A DNA stretch of 59,261 bases from assembly GCA_902797875.1 (NCBI GenBank), contig CADBUL010000010.1, positions 1-59,261 on the forward strand, in the 5' to 3' direction. A model generated the notes under the pieces. The model saw only the letters and a program-made list of their open reading frames with translations, was not told the DNA's origin and searched no databases. The first letter of the stretch is position 1. Every line of letters starts with the position of its first letter. This document shows, piece after piece, positions 7,846-48,456 of the stretch. Position numbers and translations under genes: made by a program. The stretch is from Oscillospiraceae bacterium (GTDB lineage Bacteria > Bacillota > Clostridia > Oscillospirales > Acutalibacteraceae).

Positions 7846-7882
7846 TGAAAAGAAAAAGTCCGCAAGGCGGTTCCTTGCGGAC
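7846..7882 (-). terminator. Rho-independent terminator after 7900-8505 gene
   Basis: The stem is gtccgcaagg (7858-7867) paired with ccttgcggac (7873-7882), with a 5-nt loop. A T-rich tract follows on the minus strand (plus-strand aaaagaaaaa). Confidence 0.6.
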
Positions 7883-7899
7883 AATTTATTTTTGATAAT

Positions 7900-8505: not shown

Positions 8506-8518
8506 ACGCCCCTTTTAA

Positions 8519-9955
8519 TCAATATGCCTTGCCGAAATAAAGAAGATGCTTGGCTTTTTTGCCGCAATACACACAGGTATCGCCCGGATGTTCTTTGTCC
8601 GCGTTAAAGGGTATGCAACGCGAAGTTACGCCGATTTCTTCTTTTATATGCTCTTCGCACTCGGAGTCGCCGCACCACATAGCTTTTATAAAGCCCGGTT
8701 TGTTGTCGGCAATATCTTTGAATTCTTCTTTATTACGCGCGGTGTAGGTCATTTGCTCGCGGCGTAAGAGCGCCTTATTATAAAGATTATCACGAATGTC
8801 TTGTAAAAGCTTTTGAACGGTCTGCTCAAGGTCGCAAAGCTGTACGGTCTGCTTTTCGCCGTTGTCGCGTCGTGCAATTACGCAACAGTTGTTTTCTATA
8901 TCGCGAGGTCCTATTTCTATTCTGACAGGTACGCCTTTCATTTCGTATTCGGCGTATTTCCAACCCGGGGACTGCTCGCTTAGATCCACCTTTGCGCGGC
9001 AAACCTTACTAAGACGCTCGCAAAGTTCACACGCCTTTTCTTTAACGCCCTCTTTATGGGCGGCAACCGGTATTACAACCGCCTGTATTGGGGCGACGGC
9101 TGGCGGAAGAACGAGTCCGCTGTTATCGCCGTGGCACATAATTATCGCGCCGATAAGACGGGTCGATACACCCCATGAGGTTTGGAACGGGTTTTGCAGT
9201 TTATTATCTTTATCGGTAAACTGAATATCGAACGCTTTAGCGAAGCCGTTGCCGAAATAGTGAGAGGTTCCGCTTTGAAGCGCCTTGCCGTCGTGCATAA
9301 GCGCTTCAATGGTAAAGGTTTGTTTAGCGCCGGCAAAACGTTCTTTTTCGGTTTTTTCGCCTTTAATTACCGGCATTGCAAGATATTCTTCGCACATATT
9401 GGCGTAAATATCGAGCATCTGACGGGTCTCTTTAACCGCTTCCTCTTCGGTGGCGTGAAGGGTATGACCCTCTTGCCACAAAAACTCGCGCGAGCGCAAG
9501 AAGGGTCGCGTGGTTTTTTCCCACCTTACAACGCTGCACCACTGGTTATACAGTTTGGGCAGGTCGCGGTAAGAGTGTACTATATTTTTATAATGGTCGC
9601 AAAACAGGGTTTCGCTGGTAGGTCTTACGCAAAGGCGTTCCTCAAGTTTTTCTTCACCGCCCATTGTAACCCAGGCTACCTCGGGGGCAAAGCCCTGTAT
9701 GTGGTCTTTTTCTTTTTGTAAAAGACTTTCGGGAATAAATAACGGCATACAAACGTTTTCGTGTCCCGTTTGTTTGAACATACCGTCGAGAATTTTTTGG
9801 ATGTTTTCCCAAATGGCATAGCCGTAGGGGCGTATTACCATACACCCTTTTACCGAGGTGTATCCGATAAGTTCGGCTTTAAGTACGACGTCGGTATACC
9901 ACTTGGCAAAGTCCACTTCCATATCGGTAATTTCTTTTACCTTTTTATCGTCCAT
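8519..9955 (-). CDS. proS: Proline--tRNA ligase (archaeal/eukaryote-like short type with C-terminal Cys-rich domain)
   Basis: 478 aa. The N-terminus ([35 protein letters not shown]), the class II core and the C-terminus ([14 protein letters not shown]...[20 protein letters not shown]) are typical of this ProRS type. Confidence 0.93.
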
Positions 9956-10004
9956 ATTTTTTCTCCGTTACAAAAATTATGCCGCACATTCAGCGGCATA
10001 GTTT

Positions 10005-10232
10005 TTACTGATTATTCTCAATATAATTAACAACGTCCGCAACGGTTTTAATGCCTTCTATCTCTTCGTCGGGTACTTCAAGCTCGAATTCATCTTCGAT
10101 GGTCATCAGTAGTTCGTAAACGTCAAGACTGTCGGCGCCGAGATCGTCGACAATTAAAGTGTCCTCGGTAATTTCGCTTTCGTCGCGGTCAAACTGTTGC
10201 GCTAAAATGTTTCGTATTTTTTCAAATACCAC
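10005..10232 (-). CDS. acpP: Acyl carrier protein
   Basis: 75 aa, acidic, with the DDLGADSLDVYELLMTIEDEF phosphopantetheine-Ser motif (DSL). No fab genes are adjacent. Confidence 0.85.
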   Translation of the reverse strand: MVFEKIRNILAQQFDRDESEITEDTLIVDDLGADSLDVYELLMTIEDEFELEVPDEEIEGIKTVADVVNYIENNQ

Positions 10233-10328
10233 GGTAATTCCTCCAAAGCAATAATAGAAATAACAGATATATAAATAATATGTAATTTATTCCGGTTTGT
10301 CAACTGTTTTTTACAAAATATTTGGCTG

Positions 10329-12164: not shown

Positions 12165-12194
12165 AAATACCTCTTTACCTGGCGGCGAAATAAA

Positions 12195-13592
12195 TTACAT
12201 CCGCACAACCTTAATATAGTAGCAGTCGCTATCGAAAAAGAACATTTCTTTTGTAACGGTAATTTTATAACCCTGCTTTGTAATATACTTATTGATAACC
12301 GAATAATCGTCGTAGATATATGCGGCAAAATAGGTTTTGGGTGATACCGGTTTTTTGGCAAACTTGAAGGTAAGATAGTCGTCGCCCATTTTATTAAGGT
12401 TATCTATCGCCTTTTGGTAGTTTGCGGGCTCGGAATATTCATTGGCTATAAGCACGCTGAAATTGTCGTGATATGCCGCCGCCGTAGAATTGCACTCGGG
12501 TACCGCTACGGTGTTGTAATCTATTGTGTGGTCGGCGCACATCTGCGCTTTTGTAAGGTTGAAATATCCGTAATATACGCCGTTTTGAGCGTCCATATCG
12601 TCCCAGGTAACATCGGTTTGATACCAGGCGTTATTGATATTTACCGCCGACCACATATGGTCGGTTTTTTTGCCCTCGCCCATTATTTGAGTAGAGTTTA
12701 TACCGCTTTGCAGACATAAAAACTGAAACGCCTTAACATACCCTTCGCAAACCGCACTTTTTTTACACAGCGCGCCGTAGGCACTATATTCGTGGGGCAG
12801 GGCATCTCCTGTGTCGGCGGAAGAAACCGCGCTGTTATATTTTACGGTATTAACAAGATAATCGTGAAGCGTCTTTTCGGTAAGAAGGCTTTCGCCCTTA
12901 TTACACGCTTTTACCACCGACGAAACCGCACTGTTAAACCGTTTAATCTGACCGTCAATAACCGTGCGCGAGGCGGTTTTTGTAAGTTTTAGGTTGTCAT
13001 CAAGCCGGTCGGCTACGGTGCCGTCGCTGTAATACAGAATTACCGACGAAACCTTTTTGCCGTTGTTTACATAGGTGATTTTATTCTGCTTGGTAAGCCA
13101 AAAATACTGGGGATTGTCGACAATAAGTCGAATAAGCATTTGCTTAGCCTGGTCTAAGGTTAAGCCGATTTTATCGATATTTATAACGTTGTCGGCTTTT
13201 TCAATGGATTTGCATACCATATCATAGGCCTTTTTCTGCGCTGTCGAGAGGGTCCCGTACTGGTAAAAATTTTCGGTTTTTACCGCGCCGTCAAATTTGG
13301 CTATGGCTACCGAAAGCGCGGGAGAGGTCGCCTCTTTTTCGGCCTCTTGGTCGGCTTGTTGGGTTTGAACCTTAACCACCACGTCGCTTTTTACGGTATT
13401 ATGTTTTGGAGCGCTTTGCTGTGCGGCGCTTGCGGTCGTGTTTTGATCGTCCGACGATATACCGCCGTCGACAATTAAAAGATCCTCCTCTTCCAAACCG
13501 TCGTCATCTGAGACCTGACCGTTAAACAGCGTGCATGAGCATAACGATAAGGCTGTAATAAGGGCTATTATTGATGTAAAAAGCTTTTTCAT
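12195..13592 (-). CDS. Lipoprotein with C-terminal transglutaminase-like (Cys-His-Asp) domain
   Basis: The signal/lipobox is MKKLFTSIIALITALSLCSC. The core is CEGYVKAFQFLCLQSGI...TDHMWSAVNINNAWYQTDVTWDD, which resembles transglutaminase-like cysteine protease folds. Confidence 0.7.
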   Translation of the reverse strand: MKKLFTSIIALITALSLCSCTLFNGQVSDDDGLEEEDLLIVDGGISSDDQNTTASAAQQSAPKHNTVKSDVVVKVQTQQADQEAEKEATSPALSVAIAKFDGAVKTENFYQYGTLSTAQKKAYDMVCKSIEKADNVINIDKIGLTLDQAKQMLIRLIVDNPQYFWLTKQNKITYVNNGKKVSSVILYYSDGTVADRLDDNLKLTKTASRTVIDGQIKRFNSAVSSVVKACNKGESLLTEKTLHDYLVNTVKYNSAVSSADTGDALPHEYSAYGALCKKSAVCEGYVKAFQFLCLQSGINSTQIMGEGKKTDHMWSAVNINNAWYQTDVTWDDMDAQNGVYYGYFNLTKAQMCADHTIDYNTVAVPECNSTAAAYHDNFSVLIANEYSEPANYQKAIDNLNKMGDDYLTFKFAKKPVSPKTYFAAYIYDDYSVINKYITKQGYKITVTKEMFFFDSDCYYIKVVRM

Positions 13593-34999: not shown

Positions 35000-35860
35000 A
35001 TGGCACGAGTCATAAGTTTAAAATTTAGGGACGGCGGCAGAGAATACTATTTTGACGCTTCGGATAAAATCTACCGCGAGGGCGAGATCGTAGTGGTAGA
35101 TACCGCCCTTGGTACCGAGTGCGGCACCGTAACAAAGGCGTCGCACACCATAAGCGACGACCAGATTGTAAAACCGCTTAAAAAGGTTATTCGCCGCGCC
35201 GACCAAAACGACCTTAAAAAATTGGAGCAAAACCGTAAAAAGGCCGCTGCCGCCTTTGAAACCTGCGAGCAAAAAATTGAAAAATACGGTCTTGATATGA
35301 AACTTGTAGACGTAGAGGTCGCCTTTGAAACCGGCAAAATGACCTTTACCTTTACCTCGGACGGCCGTGTGGATTTTCGCGAGCTTGTAAAAGATCTGGC
35401 TTCGACCTTCCACGCCAGGATTGAACTTCGTCAAATCGGCGTTCGCGATGAGGCGAGGATGCTGGGCGGTCTGGGAATATGCGGCCAACCCTTTTGCTGC
35501 GCGCGGTTTTTGGACGATTTTCAACCGGTGTCTATAAAAATGGCGAAAGAGCAGGGCTTATCGCTTAACCCGACCAAAATATCGGGCAGCTGCGGACGGC
35601 TTATGTGCTGCCTGAAATATGAGCAGGACGCCTACGTTTATCTTAACAAGCGCACCCCGAAGGTCGGCTCTACCGTATCCACCCCCGAAGGCGTGGGTGT
35701 AGTAACCGACGTAAATCTTTTGCGCGGTATACTTACGGTGCAAATCAACGATTCGCTGCCGGTTAAGGTAAACAAAGACGAGGTTACCCTTATTAAACCG
35801 CCGCCTAAAAACAAGAACAAAAAAGCCGAGGAAGAAATCCCCGACGAATTAAATCAATAG
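35000..35860 (+). CDS. ricT: PSP1-domain protein RicT/YaaT (stage 0 sporulation / RNase Y regulator complex)
   Basis: VISLKFRDGGREYYFDA...GEIVVVDTALGTECGTV is the PSP1 region, and the Cys cluster is CGQPFCCARFL...SGSCGRLMCCLKYE. Confidence 0.88.
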   Translation: MARVISLKFRDGGREYYFDASDKIYREGEIVVVDTALGTECGTVTKASHTISDDQIVKPLKKVIRRADQNDLKKLEQNRKKAAAAFETCEQKIEKYGLDMKLVDVEVAFETGKMTFTFTSDGRVDFRELVKDLASTFHARIELRQIGVRDEARMLGGLGICGQPFCCARFLDDFQPVSIKMAKEQGLSLNPTKISGSCGRLMCCLKYEQDAYVYLNKRTPKVGSTVSTPEGVGVVTDVNLLRGILTVQINDSLPVKVNKDEVTLIKPPPKNKNKKAEEEIPDELNQ

Positions 35861-35870: not shown

Positions 35871-35906
35871 AAGGTTTGCAGAAAAATTTCCGCAAACCTT
35901 TTTTAT
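35871..35906 (+). terminator. Terminator after ricT, left boundary of phage-like cluster
   Basis: aaggtttgc (35871-35879) pairs with gcaaacctt (35892-35900), followed by tttttat. Confidence 0.65.
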
Positions 35907-36097
35907 TTGCGAAAATTTTGCAACAATGCTTAGAAAAATCAAATAAAATCCGCAAGAAATTTTTGTCGTTTCGCGGTATTGCCGTAACACACCCCCGAAA
36001 AAACACGGTAAATACCCGGGACGATTTTTTGTTTTTTGGGCAGTATGATTAGTGTGTACCCAAGATTACAATCCTCAAGCAAAAAAGGAGTATAAAA

Positions 36098-36334
36098 ATG
36101 CCCAAACGCAAAAGTATAAAACAATGCCTGCAAACCATATTAAACGGCACGGCGCTTAGCCAAGACAACAAAACCAGCGGCAGTATGGAAATTGCCAAAG
36201 GTCTGTTTGCCGCCGCCAAACAGGGAAGCGTCCCCGCGATTAAAGCGCTTTTAGAAATTACCGAAAGCGACGAGGACGACAACGGCGCGGCGCTTTCAAG
36301 GTTGTACAAGGCGCTGGATGAAAAAGAAGACTGA
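36098..36334 (+). CDS. Short (78 aa) small-terminase-like protein
   Basis: It sits immediately upstream of terL and has an AAGGAG RBS. The segment AAKQGSVPAIKALLEITE resembles the helical motif seen in many TerS proteins. It is far shorter than typical TerS (about 130-180 aa), and I see no HTH. Confidence 0.35.
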   Translation: MPKRKSIKQCLQTILNGTALSQDNKTSGSMEIAKGLFAAAKQGSVPAIKALLEITESDEDDNGAALSRLYKALDEKED

Positions 36335-36336
36335 AA

Positions 36337-37692
36337 ATGAACATACAAAAATTAAGTGCAAAGCAGCGTGAACTTTTGCGCTGGTGCCACCGTAAAGGCG
36401 GCTACGACAATATAATCTGCGACGGCGCCGTGCGTAGCGGCAAAACGGTGATTATGGCAATATCGTTTGTCCATTGGGCTATGCGGTATTTTGAAAACCA
36501 AAACTTTGCGTTTTGCTCTAAAACGGTTAAAACCTGCGAGCGAAACGTTATTATGCCGCTTTTATCTTGCGGTGATATAGCCGAATTTTTTGACCTTACC
36601 TATAAGCGAAGCGACGGCGTGCTGATTATAAAAAACGGCAACCGCAAAAACACCTTTTATCTGTTTGGCGGCAAGGACGAAAGCAGTTTTGCGCTAATTC
36701 AGGGCATTACCCTTGCAGGGGTTATGTTCGACGAAACCACGCTGCTGCCTAAAAATTTTGTAAATCAGGCTATTGCCAGAACCCTTTCGGTAAAGGGCGC
36801 GAAACTGTGGTTTAACTGCAACCCCGAAGGACCGCAGCACTGGTTTTACAACGAATGGCTTAAAGACAGCGATGGAGCAAATATAAAAAACTGTTTGCAC
36901 CTGCACTTTACTATGGAGGACAATCCTATTTTATCAGCCGCCCAAATTGAAAAAGCCAAACGGCTTTACACCGGCGTATTTTATAAGCGTTATATTTTGG
37001 GTCTGTGGGTTGCCGCCGAGGGTCTTATCTACCCTGATATAGACCCGGTTATTGTAAAAGACGCGCCGCTTCCAAAAAACTGTATGCGCCTTATGGTGGG
37101 TATGGACTTTGGCGGCAACCGCAGTCTTACCACCCTTGTTGCGTGCGCCATAACCGAAAACTATGAAAGCCTGACTGCGCTTTCCGATTATGCCGTAAGC
37201 GGCAAAAAGGGTGAAATAGACGCCGCCCGCATTTGTGAAAAAACCGAAGAATTTATAAAAAGCATTTACAGCAAATACGGCCGCTACCCCGATGAAATAC
37301 GGTGCGACAGCGCCGAACAATATCTTATAACAACACTTAAAAACCACCTTATAAAAAAAGGGTTTAACATAGCCGTTAAAGACAGCGACAAAAAAGAGAT
37401 CCTGCAGCGAATACGCTGCACGTGTTCGCTCATTTCAAACCGCAAACTTATAATAAACAGCGACTGCCGCCTTCTGATAAACGGGCTTAAAAGCGCCGTA
37501 TGGGACCAAAAGGCAGCAAGCAAAGGTAAGGACGTAAGGCTGGACGATTTTACAAGCGACATCGATATTTTAGACGCTTTTGAATATTCGTTTTCACCCT
37601 TTATCGCCCGTTTTACCCCGCGGCTTGAAAAGAACTTCAAGGACGGCGGAGGGGGTGTTACCGCAAGGGACTTTAAGGGCTATTGGTTTTAA
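36337..37692 (+). CDS. terL: Phage terminase large subunit (PBSX/Terminase_3-like)
   Basis: LSAKQRELLRW...NIICDGAVRSGKT is the Walker A motif, VMFDE is Walker B-like, and a C-terminal nuclease-like half with conserved D residues is present. It is 451 aa. Confidence 0.85.
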   Translation: MNIQKLSAKQRELLRWCHRKGGYDNIICDGAVRSGKTVIMAISFVHWAMRYFENQNFAFCSKTVKTCERNVIMPLLSCGDIAEFFDLTYKRSDGVLIIKNGNRKNTFYLFGGKDESSFALIQGITLAGVMFDETTLLPKNFVNQAIARTLSVKGAKLWFNCNPEGPQHWFYNEWLKDSDGANIKNCLHLHFTMEDNPILSAAQIEKAKRLYTGVFYKRYILGLWVAAEGLIYPDIDPVIVKDAPLPKNCMRLMVGMDFGGNRSLTTLVACAITENYESLTALSDYAVSGKKGEIDAARICEKTEEFIKSIYSKYGRYPDEIRCDSAEQYLITTLKNHLIKKGFNIAVKDSDKKEILQRIRCTCSLISNRKLIINSDCRLLINGLKSAVWDQKAASKGKDVRLDDFTSDIDILDAFEYSFSPFIARFTPRLEKNFKDGGGGVTARDFKGYWF

Positions 37693-37710
37693 TAAAAAAG
37701 GAGAAACTAT

Positions 37711-37893
37711 ATGAATATTATTATTGCATGCGTTTTGGCGGCGATATTTACCGCCTCGTTTTTCGCAGGATTTTTTGTTAAAGATATTTTTTACAAAAAA
37801 TCAGATAAAACAGGAAACGATTTTGATTTGAAAGAATTCTTAAACTACGACGGAAATTTTACGGAGGAACAAAATGGAAAACACTACTTATAA
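37711..37893 (+). CDS. Small membrane protein (60 aa)
   Basis: A strong AAGGAGA RBS lies 6 nt upstream. It has one TM helix (IIIACVLAAIFTASFFAGFFV). I assign no family. Confidence 0.45.
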   Translation: MNIIIACVLAAIFTASFFAGFFVKDIFYKKSDKTGNDFDLKEFLNYDGNFTEEQNGKHYL

Positions 37894-38593
37894 TACCGGT
37901 GATTTTGCGGCGGACACCACACCGACGCCAAATCAAGATATATTAAACGACTGTGCGGAAGAAGCGGGCGAGGGCACCACACCGACCCCCGATTCTTCGC
38001 CAAAAGTAAAGGTAAAGTACAATCACGAGGAATCTTTTTATTCTCTGGAACAGGCGGCGCAGATTATTCAAAAGAATATGTACGCCAAAGAGAGCCTCGA
38101 AAAGTTGCAGTTTATGGCAGCGGGTAAAGGCGTATCGCTTCCCGACCTTGTGGACGAGTTGTTCGAGCGCAACGAAAGAGAGGCTTTATCTTTACTGAAA
38201 GAACAGTTTGCCGACGATGACGAGGGTTTTCTCAATGCCCTTAATCTTCGACGCAAACAAAACGAGGAGGCGTTTGTAAATACCTTCAAAGATAGGGGCG
38301 AACCCGATATAAATCAAAGGCTTGCAGACGAGTTTTTTGAACTTTGCGAACAGGTACCCGAGGTTTCGGACATACGCTCTATCCCCGACAGCGTCCTAAC
38401 CGAGGCGGCGACAAGCGGTAAAAGCTTAACGCTTTGTTATCTGCTGCATAAGTACCGCGAAGCCGCCAAAAAGGACGCCCAAAAACAAACCGACCTGCAA
38501 AATGCCAAAAGCAGCGTCGGGTCACTTGAAAGCCCGGCGGTCGGGGGCGAAAACCCCGTAATATCCGCCCTGCTTAAAGGAATACGCAAATAA
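37874..38593 (+). CDS. Putative scaffolding protein
   Basis: 239 aa, acidic and predicted to be helix-rich (E/K/L/A-rich). It lies directly upstream of the putative capsid gene. The assignment rests on position and composition only. Confidence 0.4.
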   Translation: MENTTYNTGDFAADTTPTPNQDILNDCAEEAGEGTTPTPDSSPKVKVKYNHEESFYSLEQAAQIIQKNMYAKESLEKLQFMAAGKGVSLPDLVDELFERNEREALSLLKEQFADDDEGFLNALNLRRKQNEEAFVNTFKDRGEPDINQRLADEFFELCEQVPEVSDIRSIPDSVLTEAATSGKSLTLCYLLHKYREAAKKDAQKQTDLQNAKSSVGSLESPAVGGENPVISALLKGIRK

Positions 38594-38607
38594 AAGGAGT
38601 AATTATT

Positions 38608-39516
38608 ATGGCAATTAATTCACTTGACTTTCAGTCAAAACTTACGGGCGAACTTGACAAAGAGCTTGTATCTTCGAGCGTTGTCGGCTTTTTTGCCGAT
38701 AACATTATGCGCCAAAAATTCGTAGGCGCAAAAAACGTACTTATCCCCGACCTTGAACTTCAGGGTCTTGCCGCCTATGACCGCGACAGCGGTTTTACCC
38801 AGGGCAGCGTAACCGTAGACCAAAAAACCTATACCCTCACCCAGGACCGCGCCCGTACCTTTTCGATCGACCGCGAAGATATGGACGAAATCGGCGTAGC
38901 CGAACTTGCCGGTCAGATTATGGGCGAGTTTGTGCGCACCAAGGTTGTTCCCGAGGTAGACGCCTATGCCCTTTCGAAACTTGCGGGCATTGCCGCCGCC
39001 AACAACAACGTTTTGTCTTTAGGCAGCGGTGAAACACTCGAAAACGACTGCGTAAAACTTATTAACACCGCCATAAACAACATCAACGAAATTACCGGTT
39101 ACGAAGAAGAAGTGGTTGTTTTTGTTAACCCCACCGTTTACAAGGCGCTTATGGAAAGCCCCGAACTTTCGCGTCACATTGACCTTGCCGAGTTCAAAAA
39201 GGGTGAAATAAGCACCCGCGTGCAAAAAATTAACAACGCCGCTATTATCCCCGTACCCGCCGCGCGTATGAAGACCATATTTAATTTTCTTATGGTCGGC
39301 GCGGGCGGTTTCGAGCCTGACAGCCACGCCGAGGAAATCGGCATTATCGCAATGCCCAAAAAGGCGGGCAGTCTTGTTAAAAAGACCGAAAAAATCAGAA
39401 TTTTTGAGCCCGACCAGAACGTAAATATGGACGCCTACAAATTCGATTACCGTATTTATTACGATGTTTTCGTGAAAAACTCTGCCGCAGACACCATTTA
39501 CACCTACACCTATTAA
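38608..39516 (+). CDS. Putative major capsid protein
   Basis: 302 aa with a strong RBS. It follows the scaffold-like gene, and its size and composition are typical of HK97/P22-type coat proteins. This is not verified by homology search. Confidence 0.5.
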   Translation: MAINSLDFQSKLTGELDKELVSSSVVGFFADNIMRQKFVGAKNVLIPDLELQGLAAYDRDSGFTQGSVTVDQKTYTLTQDRARTFSIDREDMDEIGVAELAGQIMGEFVRTKVVPEVDAYALSKLAGIAAANNNVLSLGSGETLENDCVKLINTAINNINEITGYEEEVVVFVNPTVYKALMESPELSRHIDLAEFKKGEISTRVQKINNAAIIPVPAARMKTIFNFLMVGAGGFEPDSHAEEIGIIAMPKKAGSLVKKTEKIRIFEPDQNVNMDAYKFDYRIYYDVFVKNSAADTIYTYTY

Positions 39517-39573
39517 GGTATATTGCGGAGCCGGCACTTTGCGGTCGGCTCCGCTTAAAAAGGAGGAACCTTA

Positions 39574-41256
39574 GTGAACACAGTAAGCGAACTTTTCAAA
39601 ACATTTGAACAACTGCGTGAACAAAAAGAGGCTCTTGGAGATAACGGTATCTACCGTCAATCGCAGATAAACGAGCGATTTTACAAGGGCGACCAGTGGC
39701 ATGGGCTAAAGGGCGTGCAGAACCGTCCGCTTATTCGCAACAACGTAATAAAAAGAATAGCCGACCTTAAGCTGTCATGCGTCAACAACCCCGTAACAGT
39801 CACCTTTTCTGCCGAGGGTGTGCCAAACACCGCCGAAATGCGCGAGAGGGTAACAAGACAAAAAAATCAGATGCCGCAGGACCTTTCGCTGCTAGATTAC
39901 GACGAAGAAATTAACCTGGTGCTTAGCGCCCTTTCGGACTACTACGCCACCACCTGTGAACGTGTGCAGTACCAAAAAAAGTGCGAACAGCTGCTTCTTA
40001 ACGCCTATATTTCGGGTACCGGAATTATGTATACCTACTGGGACAGCGAGGTTTGTACGGGGTTGTATCTTAACGAAAACCGCCAGACGCAGATTAAGGG
40101 CGATATAGCCACCGAGGTTTTAGATGTTGAAAACGTATACTTCGGGGACGGCGCGCTGGACGATATTCAGCGTCAGCCGTTTATAATTATCGCCCAAAAA
40201 CTGTACCTTGATAAGGTAAAACAAATGGCGGCGAAAAACCGTATTTCACTTGAAATTAAACCCGATAACGACAACCAAAACAAGGTTACGGTGCTTACAA
40301 AATTTTATAAAAAGACGGTAGACCAAAAAACCGAGGTTTTTGCCGTTCAAGCGGTCAAAGAAGGCTTTATAAAAAACGAATGGGGACTTGGCGTTTCGCT
40401 TTATCCGTTTGCAAAATACTCATTCTTGCGCCGCAAAAATTCACCCTACGGTGAAAGCGAAATAACCTACAGTATCCCCAACCAGATTGCCATCAACCGC
40501 ATGATGACCGCTTCGAGTTGGGGCACCATCTTAAACGGCATGCCCATAATGATCGTCAATAACGACCTTATCCGCGACAAAATTTCAAACGAACCCGGTC
40601 AGGTTTTGAGGATTTCGGGAAACGCGGAAGATATGAACAGCGCAATAAGGTATATTACTCCCCCGTCGTTTAGCGCAAACTATGAAAACGCCGCCCTTTC
40701 GCTTTCTTCGACCACCCTTAATATGGCGGGCGCAAACGACGCGGCGCTTGGTAATATTAAACCCGATAACGCTTCGGCTATTATTGCGGTAAGAGAGGCC
40801 GCCATGCTTCCCATGCAAAGCCACCTAAACGCCTATTACGCGTTTTCAGAGGAGGTTGCGCGTATCTGGTCACAGTTTTGGTTAAACAAATACGGCAACC
40901 GCGCCCTTAAAATTACCGACGAAAACGGCACCTGGTATCTTCCGTTTGACGCGAGCCGTTATTCCCACCTTATTATCAACGCGCGCGTAGACGTAAGCGC
41001 TTCGAGTATTATAAGCGACGCCCAAAGTCTTGCGACGCTCGACAATATGTATGAGCACGGAATTATCGACGCCGTTCAATACCTTAAACGGCTGCCAAAC
41101 GGCATAATAAGCGATAAAAACGGTCTTATTAAAGAGAAAAAAGAGGAACTGTTGAATGCCGCCAAAGCACAACTTACGCAAGAGGACGTTGAGGACGATC
41201 CCGACGGGTTAGACCCCTATGTTGCGGCGGCACAGCTTATAGGAGGTGACGCGTGA
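39574..41256 (+). CDS. Putative portal protein
   Basis: 560 aa. The GTG start has AAGGAGG 7 nt upstream. The N-terminal NERFYKGDQW motif resembles the Y.GDQW box of several portal families, and the size is appropriate. Confidence 0.5.
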   Translation: MNTVSELFKTFEQLREQKEALGDNGIYRQSQINERFYKGDQWHGLKGVQNRPLIRNNVIKRIADLKLSCVNNPVTVTFSAEGVPNTAEMRERVTRQKNQMPQDLSLLDYDEEINLVLSALSDYYATTCERVQYQKKCEQLLLNAYISGTGIMYTYWDSEVCTGLYLNENRQTQIKGDIATEVLDVENVYFGDGALDDIQRQPFIIIAQKLYLDKVKQMAAKNRISLEIKPDNDNQNKVTVLTKFYKKTVDQKTEVFAVQAVKEGFIKNEWGLGVSLYPFAKYSFLRRKNSPYGESEITYSIPNQIAINRMMTASSWGTILNGMPIMIVNNDLIRDKISNEPGQVLRISGNAEDMNSAIRYITPPSFSANYENAALSLSSTTLNMAGANDAALGNIKPDNASAIIAVREAAMLPMQSHLNAYYAFSEEVARIWSQFWLNKYGNRALKITDENGTWYLPFDASRYSHLIINARVDVSASSIISDAQSLATLDNMYEHGIIDAVQYLKRLPNGIISDKNGLIKEKKEELLNAAKAQLTQEDVEDDPDGLDPYVAAAQLIGGDA

Positions 41257-41618
41257 TGATGGCTCAAACCCTGTTTGAAAAGGCGTTAGCTCTGCTTAAC
41301 CTGCGCGAGGCGGACGGTACGTGCGATCAAACCCTTACAAAAAACGCGCTGCCTTGCATTAACGCCGTTTACTGCGATTTGTATTATCTGCTGTACGATT
41401 CGGGTTACCGCGACGTCTCCTCTTTGCGAGATACCCTTAATCTTCCTGAAAGGGTGTTTTTCGACGTGGCGCCCTACGGCGTTGCCATGCACCTTGCAAA
41501 AATGATCGGCGACGGACTTAATCAGCAGATTTTTTCCACAATTTACAACTCTAAACGCGCAGCGGTTGGCGCAAAGGACAACATCTGCGACACCTTTATA
41601 AAAGGAGAAAGCATATGA
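41253..41618 (+). CDS. Small structural protein (head-tail adaptor/completion candidate)
   Basis: 121 aa. Its start overlaps the portal stop, which suggests translational coupling. The role is assigned from position only. Confidence 0.3.
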   Translation: MMMAQTLFEKALALLNLREADGTCDQTLTKNALPCINAVYCDLYYLLYDSGYRDVSSLRDTLNLPERVFFDVAPYGVAMHLAKMIGDGLNQQIFSTIYNSKRAAVGAKDNICDTFIKGESI

Positions 41619-43498
41619 AATACCCCAAAGTACCTGCTTCCGATGTAAAGCGGGCTACCGTTTACGATTTATCGGGCGGACTGAACCTGTCGCGAGACCC
41701 GTGTCTTATTGCAACAAACGAACAAAGCGATATGAAAAACGTTTGGTATGACGGCGCTTCACTTAAGGCGCGCCCCCTTTTTTGCGCCGCTGCGCAGCTT
41801 GACGGTTACGCCTTCAGCGGAGCAGTAAATGAGGGCCGGGCGTTATTTATTAAATACGCTTACGATTCTTATGAGGCGACCCTGAATTGCGCGCTTGTCG
41901 ACAGCAACGGCAACATCACCCGCCTAAACGATATTATAGCCCAAAACTTTCAGCGCCCGGATAACGCTTCAACCGTAATACCTAAAAGGTATTTTGCCTT
42001 TTGCTTTAACGGTGATATTTACATCGCGATAGCCTACCACCACTATCCGCTTGACACTTTTTACAAGGGTATATTTTACAAACTTGACGGCGACGGTTTT
42101 ATAAGGCTTTCCGACAGCGATTTTTACGCGCCGCTTATTGCGGTAAATATCAAGGGCGATTCATACCAAAGTTTACCCTCAAGCGACAACACCGTATTCT
42201 CGCCCGCCAGCACCTTTGAGGGCTACAACCTGTTAACCGACCGCGTACGGGTAAAGTTTACCACCGACGGCGTATCGAGCAGCTTCCGCCTTCCGGTTCA
42301 GGCGCAGGAAAATCAAGATATTAAGGTACGCCTGGTGGCTTCTTTCGGCGGCGGCGCGGTGAACGAATACGAGGGTACCGTTACCCCTTCTTCCGCGGCA
42401 ACGCTTAGCAACGGTATTCGGTGTTACCGCACTTCGCAAAACCAGATTAAGTTTACCAACGCTTCGGGTACCGCCGTTGCTCCCTCCTGCGCGTTGTCAA
42501 GTTCCAACCTCGAAATAGAATTTCACGCCGATATAGACGAGGGCCGCGAGGAAGAGCTTTTGTACTGCTCGCTTTACTCGGCTTTCGGTGCAAGCGGCGG
42601 TGTGGGCAAGGGTAACCGGCTGTTTTTATCGGGAAGCTCCAAACGCCCCAATAAACTGTTTTGGAGCGACTGCGACCAACCGCTGTATTTCCCCGAAAAT
42701 AATTACAGTCTGGTTGGGGACGGTTCTGTTTTAGCGCTTCACAAACAAAATGATATGCTGGTAATTATGCTTAATAACTCTATTTATTATGCTTCGTATG
42801 TTGGTACAAACATTTCGGCAGACGACATTATAAGCGGCGCGGTAGTAGACGTTACGGTTGCCCAGGCGGTATTTCCCCTAACACTTTTACACGGCGAAAC
42901 AGGACTTTACGCCAAAGGCTGCGCCAAACTCATCGACGGTAAAATTTGCTTTTTAGGAAGCGATAAAACGGTTTACCGCATTGATGATAAAACCTCTATA
43001 AGCAAACTTTCACAAAAAATCGAACCGCTTTTATATAATCTTTCGGGCTTTTTTGCGCTCAGTAAACTCAAAAACGGATTTATGCTTACAAACGGTACAA
43101 AAGCTGCTGTATATAATACCGAAACCAAAGGCTGGTACCTGTGGGAATTTGAAACCGAATTCTTTGAAGCGGTAACCTTTGACCGCGCCCCCGTTTTGTA
43201 CGACGGTCAAAGCGTTTACGTTTTAAGCAACACACCTTGCGCAGACGCCTATTTTACTTCGCCGTTGTTTTCTTTCGGGTACCCCGATATGCGCAAAAGA
43301 GTATGCGAGATTTCAATCGAAGGGTCCGCCTCTTCGGTTGGTTTTATAAGTGAAGAGGGCGAAAGCATTTGTAAACCCTTAAGTCTAAGCAAAAAGGCGG
43401 TTGCGCCGCTATGCGGCGTAAAATACGCGGGTTTTTCGGTTTACGGACTTAAAAACGCTTCTTCAATAACCCTTAAGTATTATATTTTTAACAATTAA
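41615..43498 (+). CDS. Large structural protein (tail hub/nozzle candidate)
   Basis: 627 aa, beta-rich in composition, and overlapping the upstream stop. I recognise no motif. The role is inferred from its position after the portal and adaptor. Confidence 0.35.
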   Translation: MKYPKVPASDVKRATVYDLSGGLNLSRDPCLIATNEQSDMKNVWYDGASLKARPLFCAAAQLDGYAFSGAVNEGRALFIKYAYDSYEATLNCALVDSNGNITRLNDIIAQNFQRPDNASTVIPKRYFAFCFNGDIYIAIAYHHYPLDTFYKGIFYKLDGDGFIRLSDSDFYAPLIAVNIKGDSYQSLPSSDNTVFSPASTFEGYNLLTDRVRVKFTTDGVSSSFRLPVQAQENQDIKVRLVASFGGGAVNEYEGTVTPSSAATLSNGIRCYRTSQNQIKFTNASGTAVAPSCALSSSNLEIEFHADIDEGREEELLYCSLYSAFGASGGVGKGNRLFLSGSSKRPNKLFWSDCDQPLYFPENNYSLVGDGSVLALHKQNDMLVIMLNNSIYYASYVGTNISADDIISGAVVDVTVAQAVFPLTLLHGETGLYAKGCAKLIDGKICFLGSDKTVYRIDDKTSISKLSQKIEPLLYNLSGFFALSKLKNGFMLTNGTKAAVYNTETKGWYLWEFETEFFEAVTFDRAPVLYDGQSVYVLSNTPCADAYFTSPLFSFGYPDMRKRVCEISIEGSASSVGFISEEGESICKPLSLSKKAVAPLCGVKYAGFSVYGLKNASSITLKYYIFNN

Positions 43499-43510
43499 GG
43501 AGGTTTAGTT

Positions 43511-44206
43511 TTGGCTACACTTAACAATCAAACAATTTTAGATAAACAAACGCAGGCTTATAAAAAGCTTGTAGCGCAGTATACCGCCGCAAATAAACAA
43601 TATCTTGCCGATATTTCCAAAAGCTACGACGCCCAAACCAAAAACGCCAACAGCAACGCCAACGCCGCCGCCGCGGCGCTCGAAAAAGATTTTCGCAAAA
43701 GCTACGACCTTAACGAAATTCAAAATCTTATCTCACGGCGGCTTCTTAAAGAAAAAATGGCAAATTTGGGGCTTACGCAAAGCGGACTTAACGCCAGCAG
43801 CAACACCGCCCTCGCAATCTCAAGACAAAACGCAGACGACCGCGTAACCGCTTCAAAAGCGGCGGCAGCCGCCAAAATAAAAGCGCAGTTAAACAACACC
43901 CTGGCAAGCATTAACGCCGCCAAAGCCAGCGACAGCGCAAAAGCGGCAAAGGACCTTGCCGATAAACTATCAAACGCCTACAAAGATTACAGCAAGCAGT
44001 ATAATTCAACCCTGCAAAACGCCGTCAAGCAAAAGCAAGGCGGATCAAACAGCGGGGCAAATCTTATAAACGTTTACGGCAAGCTGTATTCCATAAAAGG
44101 CGCAAATAACCGTAAGGCGTTTTTGAAGGCGGTTACCGCCGCCGGGTACATCACCGAAAGTCAGCGTAAAGCGCTGCTTAAAACGCTTAATCTGCGCGAT
44201 AATTAA
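43511..44206 (+). CDS. Ala/Lys/Asn-rich coiled-coil protein (tail needle/plug or internal protein candidate)
   Basis: The TTG start has AAGGAGG 7 nt upstream. It is 231 aa with a long low-complexity helical region (AAAAALEKDF..., SKAAAAAKIKAQLNNTLASINAAKASDSAKAAKDLADKL). Confidence 0.35.
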   Translation: MATLNNQTILDKQTQAYKKLVAQYTAANKQYLADISKSYDAQTKNANSNANAAAAALEKDFRKSYDLNEIQNLISRRLLKEKMANLGLTQSGLNASSNTALAISRQNADDRVTASKAAAAAKIKAQLNNTLASINAAKASDSAKAAKDLADKLSNAYKDYSKQYNSTLQNAVKQKQGGSNSGANLINVYGKLYSIKGANNRKAFLKAVTAAGYITESQRKALLKTLNLRDN

Positions 44207-44215
44207 GGAGGACTT

Positions 44216-45730
44216 ATGAGAGAAATTACCTATACTGTTTCGCTTGACGGCATTTTACCTTCCGGCGTGCAAAGCGCCGGTGTGCAGGGTGAAGACGCCG
44301 CCACGGTGGTAAAATTTGTTATCGCCAACGACATAGATATATCAAACAGCACCTTTCTTATAAACGCTACCGACGGCTCGGGCGTGTTTTATACGACCGA
44401 CTTTTTAACCGTAGTAGACCGCACCGTGAGCTATACCCTGCCCGTAAACCTTACTGCGTCGGGCGGTATTGCCACCCTTGTACTTGTAATAAACGGTCAA
44501 AATTCGACCGTTATGTCTTTCCCTGCGAAACTGCGGTTTGAAGACACCGGCGAAGCGGCGGCAAATACAATAAACTACACCGCCCAAATTTCGGACGCGC
44601 TTTCCCGTTGCCAGGGTTTGTCCGATAGTATGAATACGGTGCTTCCGCAGGTGCGTGAGTCGGCGCAAACCGCCCTTGAAGCGGCAAACGCGGTACAGAC
44701 CGCACAGGAGGAAAACGAGCAATTCACTGAATATATAACCGAAATGCTCGATGAAATACGGGATTTGGACGACACCATAATAGATTATTACGACCAGTGC
44801 CGTTCATTCAGGTCGGAATGCAATACCTGTAAAATACAGTCGAAAAACTCGCGCGACCAGGCGTTAAACTATCTTAACCAAACAACGCAGATAAAAACCG
44901 AGGTTGAAGGTATTGAAGATACCTGCGAAGAATACCTTGAAGGCTGTCAAAGCGCCGCCACACAGGCCGATGCGGCGGCAACCCTTTGCGAGCAGGCGGT
45001 ACAAAACCTGCCGCAGACGTTTAGCGCCACCATTCAAACGCAGATGTGGAACAACCAACCCGACCTGGATGAAAATGACGCCACAGGACTAAAAACAAAT
45101 ACCGTGTATTATGTGCATATAGTCGACCGGTCAAGCGGAAGATTTAAGCTGACTCCCGTGCGCGGCGACGCGAGCTTTGTATTCCCCGCGCTGTTTAGAC
45201 TGCACCAGTTAGATACCGGCAATTACGGTCATATAGGCGAAAACACACCGGTTATGCTTACCGATATTTCGCCAAACTGCTTTTTCAAGCTTGCGGGCGA
45301 TTATGAGCTTGGCGTAAACGTACCAAACGCCAAAGCCTACGAGATAATTATCGACGGCGTAAAGCACGGCGACGAGGTATTTTATGTGCTTGCTGACAAT
45401 AATACCTTTATTAATTACCACACAGGAAACGATACTGGAATAAGGGGTATAAAGATTGGCACAAATACTCTTTTAAGCGATAAAATTTACGAAAACGTAT
45501 TTATGAGACTATCGGTAGGCTCCAAAAATATGGTGGCTTCATATGATTACGTCGCCATGTGCGAGGGCGACGTAGAATCGACCGAGCCCGACAGTATATC
45601 GCAAAGCGTTAACGCTTCCGTAATACCGAGCATCATACCCTCAACGCCTTTTTCGGTAAGCCGGATTTCGCTTAACAGCGACAGTATGATGCTTAACGGC
45701 TTTACCCTTACGGTTAAACCGATTTTTTAA
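44216..45730 (+). CDS. Tail fibre / receptor-binding protein candidate
   Basis: 504 aa. An N-terminal Ig-like segment (AGVQGEDAATVVKFVI...ATLVLVI) is reminiscent of BppU-N-type domains. A central coiled coil and a C-terminal globular domain follow. It is the last structural gene before the lysis genes. Confidence 0.4.
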   Translation: MREITYTVSLDGILPSGVQSAGVQGEDAATVVKFVIANDIDISNSTFLINATDGSGVFYTTDFLTVVDRTVSYTLPVNLTASGGIATLVLVINGQNSTVMSFPAKLRFEDTGEAAANTINYTAQISDALSRCQGLSDSMNTVLPQVRESAQTALEAANAVQTAQEENEQFTEYITEMLDEIRDLDDTIIDYYDQCRSFRSECNTCKIQSKNSRDQALNYLNQTTQIKTEVEGIEDTCEEYLEGCQSAATQADAAATLCEQAVQNLPQTFSATIQTQMWNNQPDLDENDATGLKTNTVYYVHIVDRSSGRFKLTPVRGDASFVFPALFRLHQLDTGNYGHIGENTPVMLTDISPNCFFKLAGDYELGVNVPNAKAYEIIIDGVKHGDEVFYVLADNNTFINYHTGNDTGIRGIKIGTNTLLSDKIYENVFMRLSVGSKNMVASYDYVAMCEGDVESTEPDSISQSVNASVIPSIIPSTPFSVSRISLNSDSMMLNGFTLTVKPIF

Positions 45731-45792
45731 CATCGGGCGTATAACGGCATAAAATGTAAAGTATTAAAATATATTTTTTTAATAGCATCCTA

Positions 45793-46062
45793 ATGAAAGA
45801 CGGAAACACTATGAACGACATTATCATTGTGGCGCTTATATCCTTTTTGGGTACGCTTGTGGGTACCTTCGGCGGCATTGTCGCTTCGGGTAAACTTACA
45901 AACTACCGCCTGACAGAACTTGAAAAAAAGGTTGAAAGGCATAATTCTTTACTTGAAAGGATGGCGCTTGTAGAACAGAGTATAAACTCCGCAAATAAAC
46001 AAATTGAACTGATTAAGGAGGAAATAGGTCATGACAAATATCAAAAAAGCGACTATAGTTAG
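45793..46062 (+). CDS. Lysis-cassette membrane protein (N-terminal TM + coiled coil; true start possibly 45811)
   Basis: MNDIIIVALISFLGTLVGTFGGIVASG forms a TM helix followed by a heptad-like region. It overlaps the holin gene. It is XhlA-like in concept only. Confidence 0.4.
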   Translation: MKDGNTMNDIIIVALISFLGTLVGTFGGIVASGKLTNYRLTELEKKVERHNSLLERMALVEQSINSANKQIELIKEEIGHDKYQKSDYS

Positions 46063-46282
46063 AACCGTAACCTTGATTTTTTTACTTATAAATCAGGTTC
46101 TTTGTGCAGCAGGTAAAAATCCGCTGCCCTTTTCTGAAGACGCGGTTTACGGATTTGTATCGACTCTCCTTACCTGTGCGGCTTCGCTTTGGGCTTGGTG
46201 GAAAAACAATTCTTTCACCGCCCCCGCCATAGAAGCCGACCAATATCTAAAAGAACTTAAAGAAAACGAAAGGAATGTATAA
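46031..46282 (+). CDS. Holin (phi LC3-family-like)
   Basis: 83 aa with an AAGGAGG RBS and two TM segments. The AWWKNNSFT motif is what I recall for the phi LC3 holin family. It lies directly upstream of the endolysin. Confidence 0.6.
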   Translation: MTNIKKATIVRTVTLIFLLINQVLCAAGKNPLPFSEDAVYGFVSTLLTCAASLWAWWKNNSFTAPAIEADQYLKELKENERNV

Positions 46283-46283
46283 A

Positions 46284-47090
46284 ATGGCTTTTAAGGTTTA
46301 TTTAAGTCCCTCTAACCAGCCAAACAACACCTATAACGGCGTGGCGACTAACGAGAGAGATAACTGCCGGGAAATTGCCAAGCTTGTAAAGACCGAGCTT
46401 GAACGCTGTGGCATAACCGTAAAAATAGGCCTTGGCGGCAGTAAAAACGTAGCCGAAAGCAACGCTTTTAAGCCCAATTTGCATATACCCATTCACACCA
46501 ACGCCTACAATAAAAAGGCGCGCGGTACCTCGGTTATGGTCTATTCAAAGGCGGCGCAAAATCTAAAATACGCCACCCCCATTTTTAACCGTCTTAAGGG
46601 TATTGTGCTAAAACAGGACGCGGGACGGGGGATTTCGGTTCGTCCCGACCTTTTGGAGCTTAACGGTACTTCGGCTATAGCAGTATATATTGAGGTTGAT
46701 TTTCACGACGTACCCGAAGTGGCAAAATGGCTTACCTCCAAAAGGCAACTTATAGCGCAGACCATCGCAAAAGGTATTTGCGAGGGCGCGGGCATAAAGT
46801 ATGTGGGAGAAAAAGAGCCGAATAATACGCAGCCGCCCCAAAAAAATATGACGGCAAACGATTCTTATTCTATTACTACACCTAATCAGCCCGCCCTTGC
46901 CATTTATCTGGCGAAGCTTTTGCTTATAAATATGGGATACGCGGTTGACCCCAACGGTTACATCGGTGAAGGCACCGTAAACGCACTTAAAGATATTCAG
47001 GCTAAATCGGGACTTGCTAAAAGCGGCGCGCTTGACAGCGCCACCGCCGAAGCCCTTGTAAATCTTTACAAGGGCAAAAGCCTTAAATAA
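46284..47090 (+). CDS. N-acetylmuramoyl-L-alanine amidase endolysin with C-terminal PG_binding_1-like domain
   Basis: It has an Amidase_3-like core (VYLSPSNQ..N, IPIHTNA, AVYIEVDFHD) and a C-terminal NMGYAVDPNGYIGEGTVNALKDIQAKSGLAKSGALDSATAEAL repeat. The ATG at 46284 is preferred over 46275 (AAAGGAA RBS). Confidence 0.8.
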   Translation: MAFKVYLSPSNQPNNTYNGVATNERDNCREIAKLVKTELERCGITVKIGLGGSKNVAESNAFKPNLHIPIHTNAYNKKARGTSVMVYSKAAQNLKYATPIFNRLKGIVLKQDAGRGISVRPDLLELNGTSAIAVYIEVDFHDVPEVAKWLTSKRQLIAQTIAKGICEGAGIKYVGEKEPNNTQPPQKNMTANDSYSITTPNQPALAIYLAKLLLINMGYAVDPNGYIGEGTVNALKDIQAKSGLAKSGALDSATAEALVNLYKGKSLK

Positions 47091-47094: not shown

Positions 47095-47130
47095 AAAAAA
47101 CTCCGAAAGGTTTTGGCCTTTCGGAGTTTT
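47095..47130. terminator. Bidirectional terminator, right boundary of phage-like cluster
   Basis: aaaactccgaaagg (47097-47110) pairs with cctttcggagtttt (47117-47130) to form a 14-bp stem. It lies between the convergent amidase and ABC ATPase genes. Confidence 0.8.
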
Positions 47131-47140: not shown

Positions 47141-48307
47141 TTAGTTGCAGATGGTCTTTTCGGTGTCTTTATCGAACAGGTGGATTTTGTTAACGTCGAT
47201 GGCAACCTTGATGGTATCACCCGGACGGGCGGTAGAACTCGGGTCAACCCTGGCGTTAAGGCTTTGGCCTTCGCAGTTGGTGTAAAGATAGGTTTCCGCG
47301 CCCATAAGCTCGGTGACCTCAACCTTGGTTTCGATTATACCCTCTTTATTGGCTTTCATTAAAAGCTCTTCATCGTGAACATGTTCGGGACGAATACCCA
47401 TAACAACGTGTTTGTTAACGTAGGGCTCAAGCAAACCGACCTTGCGCTCGATTTTATCTTCGTTCTTGTAATCGGGAAGCGGAAGCTTATATTTAACGCC
47501 CGCGCGGGTTTTGGTATCTTCGCTGCCGAACTCTACAAAGAATTTTTCGCCCTCTTTAAGAACCACGGCGTCGAGGAAGTTCATTTGAGGTGAACCGATA
47601 AAGCCGGCGACAAACATATTGCAGGGCTTATCGTAAAGTACCTGAGGCGCCGCAACCTGCTGAATAAAGCCGTCCTTCATAACTACGATACGGGTACCCA
47701 TGGTCATAGCTTCGGTCTGGTCGTGGGTAACGTAAATAAAGGTGGTGCCAAGGCGTTGATGAATACGGGTAAGCTCGGTACGCATCTGCGCACGAAGTTT
47801 AGCGTCGAGGTTGGAAAGCGGTTCGTCAAGTAAGAATACCTTAGGCTCGCGAACTATCGCACGGCCAAGGGCTACACGCTGACGCTGACCGCCCGACAAA
47901 GCCTTGGGCTTACGGTCGAGTAAATGCTCGATGTCCAAAATCTTGGCGGCTTCTTCAACGCGGCGTTTAATCTCCTCTTTGCCGACCTTACGGAGTTTAA
48001 GGCCGAACGCCATATTGTCGAACACGGTCATATGCGGATAAAGCGCATAGTTTTGGAACACCATTGCTATGTCGCGGTCTTTAGGTGCAACGTCGTTAAC
48101 AAGACGGTCGCCGATGTAAAGTTCGCCGCTGCTTATTTCTTCAAGGCCGGCAACCATTCTAAGGGTGGTGGACTTACCACAGCCCGAAGGTCCAACGAGT
48201 ATAATAAACTCTTTATCGGCAATTTCAAGACAAAAATCCGAAACTGCGATAAGATCGCCTGCGCCCGGATACTTTTTGTAAATGTTTTTAAGCGTTACGC
48301 TTGCCAT
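47141..48307 (-). CDS. Sugar ABC transporter ATP-binding protein (MsmX/MalK/UgpC type)
   Basis: GPSGCGKST (Walker A), LSGGQRQR and [10 protein letters not shown] are present, with a C-terminal TOBE-like regulatory domain. The start was trimmed to [11 protein letters not shown], which has a GGGGG RBS. Confidence 0.93.
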
Positions 48308-48456
48308 AACAAAAACCCCCATTAAAAATTTTGCACTAACATTTTACCAAATGCAGATAATTAAAACAATACATTATTTACCCAAATATGTAACAATTTT
48401 TTTGTAAAAAATAACTGCTTTTTTTGGTATATTTGTTATTATTTACAAAAATTATT

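Follow-up and report, generated by a model that had tools for sequence, protein, structure and literature searches.

Why would a bacterial chromosome carry a complete set of phage-like packaging, head, short-tail and lysis genes, all intact, when no gene for replication, excision or integration is found in or beside the set? We address this question for a stretch of 59,261 nucleotides (hereafter the window) from an Oscillospiraceae bacterium of the family Acutalibacteraceae (assembly GCA_902797875.1, contig CADBUL010000010.1). The window hosts 13 plus-strand open reading frames (ORFs) at 36098-47090, a block of ~11 kb located between ricT and the gene for a MalK-type ABC ATPase (Table 1). An initial annotation had proposed that this is a gene transfer agent (GTA)-like or otherwise domesticated particle locus, and our analyses support this interpretation, with GTA activity itself as a prediction. 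In our judgement the block is very probably a vertically inherited particle locus that is maintained by selection. It is retained across several species, and probably several genera, of gut Clostridia. The full GTA-like mechanism that we outline below for a domesticated, phage-derived particle locus (a viriform), inferred steps included, seems to us reasonably likely, and that the locus truly transfers random host DNA is a possibility we raise tentatively.

The initial annotation had placed the 13 ORFs correctly and called them intact, which holds for every gene in the window and in its relatives. It also described most genes as overlapping or at most 20 nt apart; this applies to 10 of the 12 junctions, the remaining gaps measuring 57 and 62 nt. 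As in GTAs and viriforms generally, phage-like head, tail and packaging genes are here encoded in a cellular genome, and genes for autonomous replication, excision and integration are absent from the block, from its flanks and from the five other lineages described below. Family searches of the window found no integrase, repressor, replication, sheath, tube, tape-measure or baseplate gene in the block or adjacent to it, in agreement with the earlier statement that mobility, lysogeny, replication and long-tail genes are missing. A scan of the borders gave no attachment-site (att)-like direct repeats, again as first noted, and no tRNA lies there. The bracketing hairpins and core genes are both present.

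The position of the block carries much of the argument. It is found directly 3′ of ricT in six diverged lineages of the Acutalibacteraceae type, in which ricT is 66-91% identical, and all element genes are intact in every one of the six. These lineages are the window species itself (loci L001, L002 and L110); L109 (ricT 91%), which has both flanks in common with the window, the ABC ATPase included; L019, L020 and L021 (70%); L107 and its sister L003 (66-70%); L111 (67%), where spoIIGA, sigE and an aminotransferase gene lie upstream of ricT; and Candidatus Equicaccousia limihippi, a member of the Acutalibacteraceae from the horse gut, represented by a short partial contig. ricT adjoins the element in L001/L002, L019, L107, L109, L110 and L111. 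No integrase, repressor or replication gene accompanies the block in any of the six.

Two stretches of the L019 locus are peculiar to it. One, at 3953-6556 between ricT and TerS, carries an extracytoplasmic function (ECF) sigma factor, an RsgI-like anti-sigma factor and a DUF4368 serine-recombinase fragment. We read it as a later insertion, outside the element, because its GC content at third codon positions (GC3) is deviant (0.52 vs 0.60). The other is a 600 bp gap between TerS and TerL that hosts an ORF of 66 amino acids (aa), four-cysteine and zinc-ribbon-like (7119-7319). Homologs of the capsid, portal and TerL (24-50% identical) also occur less than 10 kb from ricT in metagenome-assembled genomes of unrelated Clostridia (L032 1-3700 and L095 16299-17477). 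These are on the opposite strand, do not adjoin ricT and are probably coincidental prophages.

The block has diverged together with its hosts. Between the window and L109, three host genes have a dS of 0.81-1.01 and a dN/dS of 0.07-0.09 (computed with an NG86 implementation), and 8 of the 13 element genes, namely TerS, TerL, portal, g07, g08, g09, g10 and lysin, are host-like at a dS of 0.78-0.98. Across all 13 element genes dN/dS is 0.03-0.29, e.g. 0.17 for g01 and 0.08 for TerL. A comparison of L107 with L003 gives 0.04-0.23 in the 11 of 12 shared genes with an estimable dS; the N-terminal region of g10 is saturated at dS. For more distant pairs the synonymous sites are saturated, with pN far below pS. 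Pairwise ricT identity is closely correlated with the mean identity of TerL, capsid and portal (r=0.94, 10 lineage pairs). Base composition follows the host too, with element/host-flank GC3 at 0.527/0.532 in the window and at 0.602/0.604, 0.330/0.323, 0.317/0.286, 0.401/0.384 and 0.540/0.561 in the other lineages. Codon usage, which had been judged host-like by eye, is host-like when computed: relative synonymous codon usage gives r=0.955 for the element and 0.941±0.029 for host subsets of equal size.

A check proposed with the initial annotation, that the same block should sit at the ricT site in related species with dN/dS well below 1, thus came out in favour of domestication. Judged by these alignments the block is vertically inherited and under purifying selection, as GTAs and viriforms are. 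Since it is immobile, complete, under purifying selection, diverging at the host rate and of host composition, we argue that it is maintained by selection on the cell lineage.

Where did the block come from? Among cultured phages, the portal (30% identity) and g08 (22-24%) match only podophages of Bacillus megaterium, genus Pagevirus, which differ from the locus in being complete phages with a far larger structural module. Contigs of 33.5-35.5 kb in IMG/VR (UViG_3300029698_000018, _3300031867_000288, _3300045988_181881 and _3300029842_000368) have scaffold, capsid, portal, g07, nozzle and g09 genes in the order of the window, with capsids 47-54% and portals 46-49% identical. These gut podophages of ~34 kb differ from the window block by their terminase pair and by their replication, recombination and regulator genes: ahead of the core they have RecT, a helicase, VRR-NUC, a DUF927 primase, a sigma-like gene and a Terminase_2/Terminase_3 pair, and this sigma-like late regulator is directly upstream of TerS. 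The contigs are complete phages, to whose late region the window block corresponds. Because these phages share the core and also carry replication genes, they show both the ancestry of the block and what it has lost.

Some other features of these phages may be recorded here. In L012 (16811-20906), L016 (16442-20936) and L007 (16600-20900), all of ~34 kb, the 4 kb after the g09 homolog is without an ORF of at least 150 aa, whichever strand is read with the standard code, except that in L012 and L014 a minus-strand ORF of 161-168 aa overlaps the end of that homolog. A recoded stop codon was considered as the cause and rejected, as long ORFs did not appear on reading through any one of TAG, TGA or TAA. 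The examined parts of the ~34 kb contigs showed neither a lysin nor a large fibre gene. Two phages with the same nozzle family, L193 and L194, have a 910-aa WHH-nuclease toxin with SUKH immunity in the capsid-portal gap (4325-7524 in L193) and a 4136-aa polyvalent protein (PBECR3, LPD3) after the g09 homolog (13219-22229 in L193).

A second compact phage-like element, with a capsid 61-64% identical to that of the window, was seen in L023/L024 (about 1-13000), L106 and L108. It encodes a portal, g07, a Terminase_3 TerL, a fibre-like protein, a CHAP lysin and a holin, followed by a divergent protein of 561-581 aa and an S24 LexA-like repressor. A sigma-like/DUF722 gene, a scaffold, a capsid and a 669 aa nozzle-like protein come next, the last directly by host genes. 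The right-hand neighbours in L106 and L108 are alike (a GDSL lipase and a TRAM methyltransferase), and no replication genes were seen in the parts examined. This may be another domesticated or miniature element.

What kind of particle would the window block build? Most of the first protein assignments stood up to family searches (Table 1). These are TerL with its Walker A motif, which also matches the PBSX-family model TIGR01547 of NCBIfam at 1e-49; the tiny transmembrane (TM) protein g03; the acidic scaffold-like g04, homologs of which hold the same position before the capsid gene in complete phages; the capsid, with 2117 homologs found, and the portal; and the amidase endolysin with its peptidoglycan (PG)-binding domain. 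The putative phi LC3-like holin is indeed a holin, of the SPP1 type rather than the phiLC3 type. For the TerS-like g01 the position and size were confirmed, and family support takes the form of the sub-threshold DUF5681 match, which is seen in 4/4 members of the g01 family. The protein is kept, at 53-78% identity to the window, in each of the five lineages with an available TerS region, and shows no recognisable DNA-binding domain; a literature search found no functional information on DUF5681. By position, size and this match, g01 is a candidate TerS.

The tail is best characterized through g08. An AlphaFold2 model built from 52 homologs (pLDDT 89, pTM 0.85) has podovirus nozzle or tube proteins as all of its 22 best PDB fold matches, with E-values of 1e-16 to 2e-8. 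They include the proteins of Pa223, SU10, cyanophage A4, T7 (gp12), VP1, HRP29 and P22 (gp10), as well as Sf6, GP4, Pam1 and crAss001; 8eap_D, a P22 gp10-like nozzle, is matched at 6e-10. Profile searches against PDB sequences returned nothing for g07, g08, g09 or g10. With a podovirus-type portal and nozzle present and tape measure, tube and sheath absent, the block has the composition of a short-tailed virion module. The podovirus-like layout of the initial annotation is therefore supported, given the modelled nozzle fold, the matches of portal and nozzle to Bacillus podophages of the genus Pagevirus, and the absence of any tube, sheath, tape-measure or baseplate gene.

The remaining tail proteins are less familiar. 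In compact elements and 34 kb phages alike, g07 stays between the portal and the nozzle; it has no family match in Pfam, PHROG or NCBIfam and no match in the PDB. g09 is very basic, with an isoelectric point (pI) of 9.95, and is modelled (pLDDT 85) as a long helical hairpin in which two helices of ~85 residues are linked by an invariant loop, GLxxSGxN (consensus GLTDSGLN); fold searches of the PDB and BFVD gave only non-significant coiled-coil matches, and Pfam, PHROG and NCBIfam gave nothing. The same three databases hold no family match for g10, which is conserved between lineages solely in its N-terminal ~130-175 aa, is split into two genes in L107/L003 and reaches 783 aa in L019. It is the fastest-evolving gene of the element (69% identity and a dN/dS of 0.25 between the window and L109), and the pattern of a conserved N-terminus and a variable C-terminus makes it a candidate fibre or receptor-binding protein.

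A possible control site lies ahead of g01. The GGGRCGNNTTTTTG block is the sole conserved stretch of the ricT-g01 spacer in four lineages; its motif is unique in the window, and in related loci it is found only upstream of TerS. A consensus scan gave no sigma-70 promoter between ricT and g01. We regard the GGGRCGNNTTTTTG block as a candidate site, promoter or operator, at which a factor encoded elsewhere would act.

From these components we propose the following history and working. The block would be the complete late module, i.e. packaging, head, short tail and lysis, of a gut-Clostridia podovirus of roughly 34 kb, whose early, lysogeny and replication genes would have been lost in the ancestor of an Acutalibacteraceae-like subclade. 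Since then it would have passed vertically as a chromosomal operon, kept functional by selection. The operon may be turned on in a subpopulation by a signal that acts on the promoter-like block ahead of g01, through a regulator that the element does not encode. Proheads would be assembled from scaffold, capsid and portal, and then filled by the 78-aa TerS-like protein and the PBSX-family TerL in a headful-type mechanism. Since the locus is capable of neither replication nor excision, we propose that the packaged DNA must be host chromosomal. From g07, the nozzle g08, g09 and the fibre g10 a short tail would be completed, and the producer cell would be lysed by g11 with the holin and the amidase; the released particles would adsorb to related cells via the fast-evolving g10.

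Three observations bear on function. The strong purifying selection on the terminase genes argues that DNA packaging is part of what is selected. Fast change in g10 is a sign that adsorption matters, and the lysis cassette points to particles that leave by lysing the producer. All three fit a particle of the GTA-like kind.

Several points weigh against such a particle. The locus is known here from its genes, from which expression, particles, packaged DNA and transfer are all predicted, and statements about it refer to the 59 kb contig, so that further modules may lie elsewhere in the genome. No regulator was found in or beside the block, and the GGGRCGNNTTTTTG block fits no recognised sigma consensus; a comparison by eye with the sigma-A, E, K, H, B, ECF and sigma-54 consensus sequences gave no fit. 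By analogy with relatives that have ~50% identical capsids and genomes of ~34 kb, the capsid may exceed what the 11 kb locus would fill. In classical GTAs, by contrast, the encoding gene cluster does not fit into the head. The element is also confined to one subclade. Our ricT survey of GTDB genomes and metagenomes listed matches at up to 67% identity; among the 160 loci listed, at 55-67% identity, 112 have at least 3 kb downstream, and the element occurs in just one of these 112 informative loci, L111, the site being empty in the others. The sigE-aminotransferase-ricT synteny is absent from the other 55-67% loci. Conservation of the right flank is limited to close relatives. Finally, a capsid tract of ~1 kb (window 38534-39582) has a nucleotide identity to L109 of 0.92-0.99 and a capsid dS of 0.19, compared with 0.75-0.88 and about 0.9 outside it, in both the element and the host flanks. 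The tract looks like recent interspecies recombination or exceptional codon constraint; on the first reading there has been some horizontal exchange, and inheritance has not been purely vertical.

Could the particle be a weapon? A PBSX-like killer particle would be the same domesticated locus, selected to kill competitors on adsorption, with packaging as a by-product needed for head completion. PBSX of Bacillus is indeed similar in that it comes from a Firmicute, has a TerL that falls in the same NCBIfam family, resembles the window block in its lysis cassette, is chromosomally fixed and does not propagate. The window cassette (small TM protein, SPP1-type holin, amidase) is laid out in the xhlA-xhlB-xlyA arrangement, and a fast-evolving fibre whose C-terminus is swapped between lineages is expected of strain-specific targeting. 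However, PBSX is ~28 kb, with a contractile myovirus tail, its own Xre repressor and a sigma-like activator, whereas the window block has no contractile tail or other killing device and no Xre/Xpf-type regulators in it or adjacent. A podovirus nozzle that delivers DNA is not known to have killing activity. We consider this explanation unlikely.

A second alternative would keep the operon silent until a related phage, whether infecting or co-resident, supplies its late-gene activator and switches it on, making the element a helper-dependent defence or parasite. Its capsids and terminase might compete with those of the phage, or host DNA or the element itself might be packaged; in either form the idea strikes us as quite unlikely. 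Complete relatives do have a gene for a sigma-like late regulator shortly before TerS; the compact element is without that regulator yet retains a promoter-like block, and the second compact type retains a sigma-like gene along with its S24 repressor. That said, the GGGRCGNNTTTTTG block is absent from the phage relatives examined, and full sets of tail and lysis genes are unneeded by a defence decoy or a capsid-forming satellite. Capsid-forming satellites such as phage-inducible chromosomal islands have an integrase, replication or primase genes and a repressor, with no tail or lysis genes, and the window, without integrase or replication genes, is the opposite in content. Host-like divergence also speaks against a helper-dependent element.

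A non-functional, undecayed remnant, or independent integrations at one site that each lost their early genes, is highly improbable, in spite of the lack of a regulator, integrase or att sites, the recombinase fragment near the L019 element and the restriction to one subclade, since 13 genes are intact in six lineages with dS about 0.9 or saturated and dN/dS of 0.03-0.29, dS is host-like and GC3 host-matched in every lineage, the left junction is identical wherever L019's later insertion is absent, the L019 fragment sits with an ECF sigma pair in that deviant-GC insertion, and six parallel decays to one gene set are implausible; a recently decayed remnant, the main alternative in the initial annotation, is therefore effectively excluded, and repeated same-site integration very unlikely.

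How new is a vertically inherited, GTA-like locus of this kind? The first reading, that no such element is known from Clostridia or with a podovirus-like layout, is out of date. Faecalibacterium prausnitzii has a podovirus-like GTA, FpGTA (PMC12946183, Nat Commun 2026; preprint November 2024, bioRxiv 10.1101/2024.11.15.623857), described as the first podovirus-like GTA and the first from the human gut. Its particles are ~40 nm in size with ~9 kb of DNA, and proteomics supports them. Its genes form two operons, separated by 125 kb, in the order TerS-TerL-portal-Prp-like-capsid...nozzle, with the tail-fibre and lysis genes in the second, distant operon. Its TerS is without an obvious DNA-binding domain and its nozzle was matched to PDB 8eap. 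The study also reports frequent GTA-like packaging among Ruminococcaceae, Oscillospiraceae and Christensenellaceae of the gut (PMC12946183).

The two loci have a good deal in common. Both are chromosomal, in an Oscillospirales gut host, and consist of structural, packaging and lysis genes only. Both have a P22 gp10/T7 gp12-like nozzle, a short TerS with no obvious DNA-binding domain, a holin and an endolysin, both lack integrase and replication genes, and both are conserved across species. They differ in host family and in gene order, the window having a single operon of TerS-TerL-TM-scaffold-capsid-portal-g07-nozzle-g09-fibre-lysis. The FpGTA capsid is annotated as N4-gp56 family, whereas that of the window is phrog_422, of the Lj928 type, and has no match at E<=0.1 in NCBIfam, N4-gp56 model included. 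FpGTA also has experimental support, whereas the window locus is known from its sequence. By capsid family, gene order, operon number and host family, and with FpGTA taken as described in its publication, the locus is not an FpGTA ortholog. A more distant parallel is RcGTA of the Alphaproteobacteria, likewise a vertically inherited head-tail cluster of similar size with purifying selection and host-like composition, which encodes neither replication nor integration genes of its own; the RcGTA TerS is without sequence specificity. RcGTA differs in its siphovirus-type tail, unrelated proteins, proven ~4 kb head, and lysis and regulator genes located elsewhere in the genome.

The locus is thus apparently an independently derived domesticated phage particle, GTA-like and of a kind already known; we found no literature linking such an element to the Acutalibacteraceae. 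We would go further only with caution, and suggest as an open possibility a bona fide GTA, the product of a second independent podovirus domestication in gut Oscillospirales, held in a single operon and fixed across several Acutalibacteraceae genera. Very few GTA lineages are known, and the virome study identified the responsible genes only in Faecalibacterium (PMC12946183). If the proposal is true, this locus and similar compact elements (those of the L023/L106/L108 type) would account for part of the GTA-like packaging in gut viromes that has no assigned locus. Among candidates for a second agent of the podovirus type, domesticated independently, it is unusually clean. Its hosts belong to a family of bacteria that are abundant in human and animal guts, and tests can draw on its orthologous loci, on living relatives among phages and on the conserved regulatory motif. 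It would add to the evidence that phage domestication for DNA exchange recurs in gut Firmicutes, and would offer a compact 13-gene system in which to study the minimal needs of a short-tailed DNA-delivery particle.

Table 1. Features of the particle locus and its borders, in window coordinates.
Feature	Position	Strand	Basis or remark
ricT (PSP1 domain), host gene, left neighbour in all lineages	35000..35860	+	Pfam PSP1 8e-34
Hairpin and T-run, ricT terminator, left border	35871..35906	.	seen in sequence
GGGRCGNNTTTTTG, then ~12 nt later TAnnAT, candidate promoter/operator	36010..36049	+	~50 nt upstream of g01
g01, 78 aa, TerS-like candidate	36098..36334	+	directly precedes TerL; size; sub-threshold DUF5681
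g02, large terminase (TerL), PBSX family	36337..37692	+	phrog_2 6e-49; Terminase_6N; Walker A GAVRSGKT
g03, 60 aa, one N-terminal TM segment	37711..37893	+	TM prediction; position conserved
g04, acidic scaffold candidate, pI 4.6	37874..38593	+	precedes capsid gene; phrog_14606
g05, HK97-type major capsid protein	38608..39516	+	phrog_422 2e-73
g06, portal protein, podovirus type	39574..41256	+	phrog_156 2e-26
g07, 121 aa, head-tail adaptor candidate (inferred from position)	41253..41618	+	between portal and nozzle
g08, 627 aa, short-tailed-phage tail nozzle/tube protein	41615..43498	+	fold match; Page gp15 sequence match
g09, 231 aa, needle or ejection-protein candidate	43511..44206	+	follows nozzle gene in all relatives
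g10, 504 aa, fibre/receptor-binding candidate	44216..45730	+	conserved N-terminus, coiled coil, variable C-terminus
g11, 89 aa, TM and coiled coil, lysis accessory candidate	45793..46062	+	phrog_1863 2e-14; TM segment at residues 5-33
g12, SPP1-type holin	46031..46282	+	Holin_SPP1 3e-27; phrog_263 5e-28
g13, endolysin, N-acetylmuramoyl-L-alanine amidase with PG-binding domain	46275..47090	+	Amidase_3 2e-15; PG_binding_1 7e-8
Perfect 14-bp inverted repeat, bidirectional terminator, right border	47097..47130	.	repeat scan
MalK-like sugar ABC ATPase, host gene, right neighbour (L109 too)	47141..48322	-	ABC_tran, OB_MalK, TOBE

The surroundings of the block are those of an ordinary host chromosome. 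Upstream are spoIIGA, sigE, a class-V aminotransferase gene and ricT; downstream are the MalK-like ABC ATPase, the C-terminus of which (35 aa) is identical between the window and L109, a pseudouridine synthase and a DUF4830 gene. Farther out in the window are ispD, ispF and genes for dehydroquinase and adenylosuccinate lyase. Two RNA features were also noted in the window, far to the left of the block. ARAGORN calls a tRNA-Lys(ttt) at 3784-3858, on the strand opposite to a 220-aa ORF that covers the region, and an S10-Clostridia ribosomal leader lies at 7637-7714 on the minus strand.

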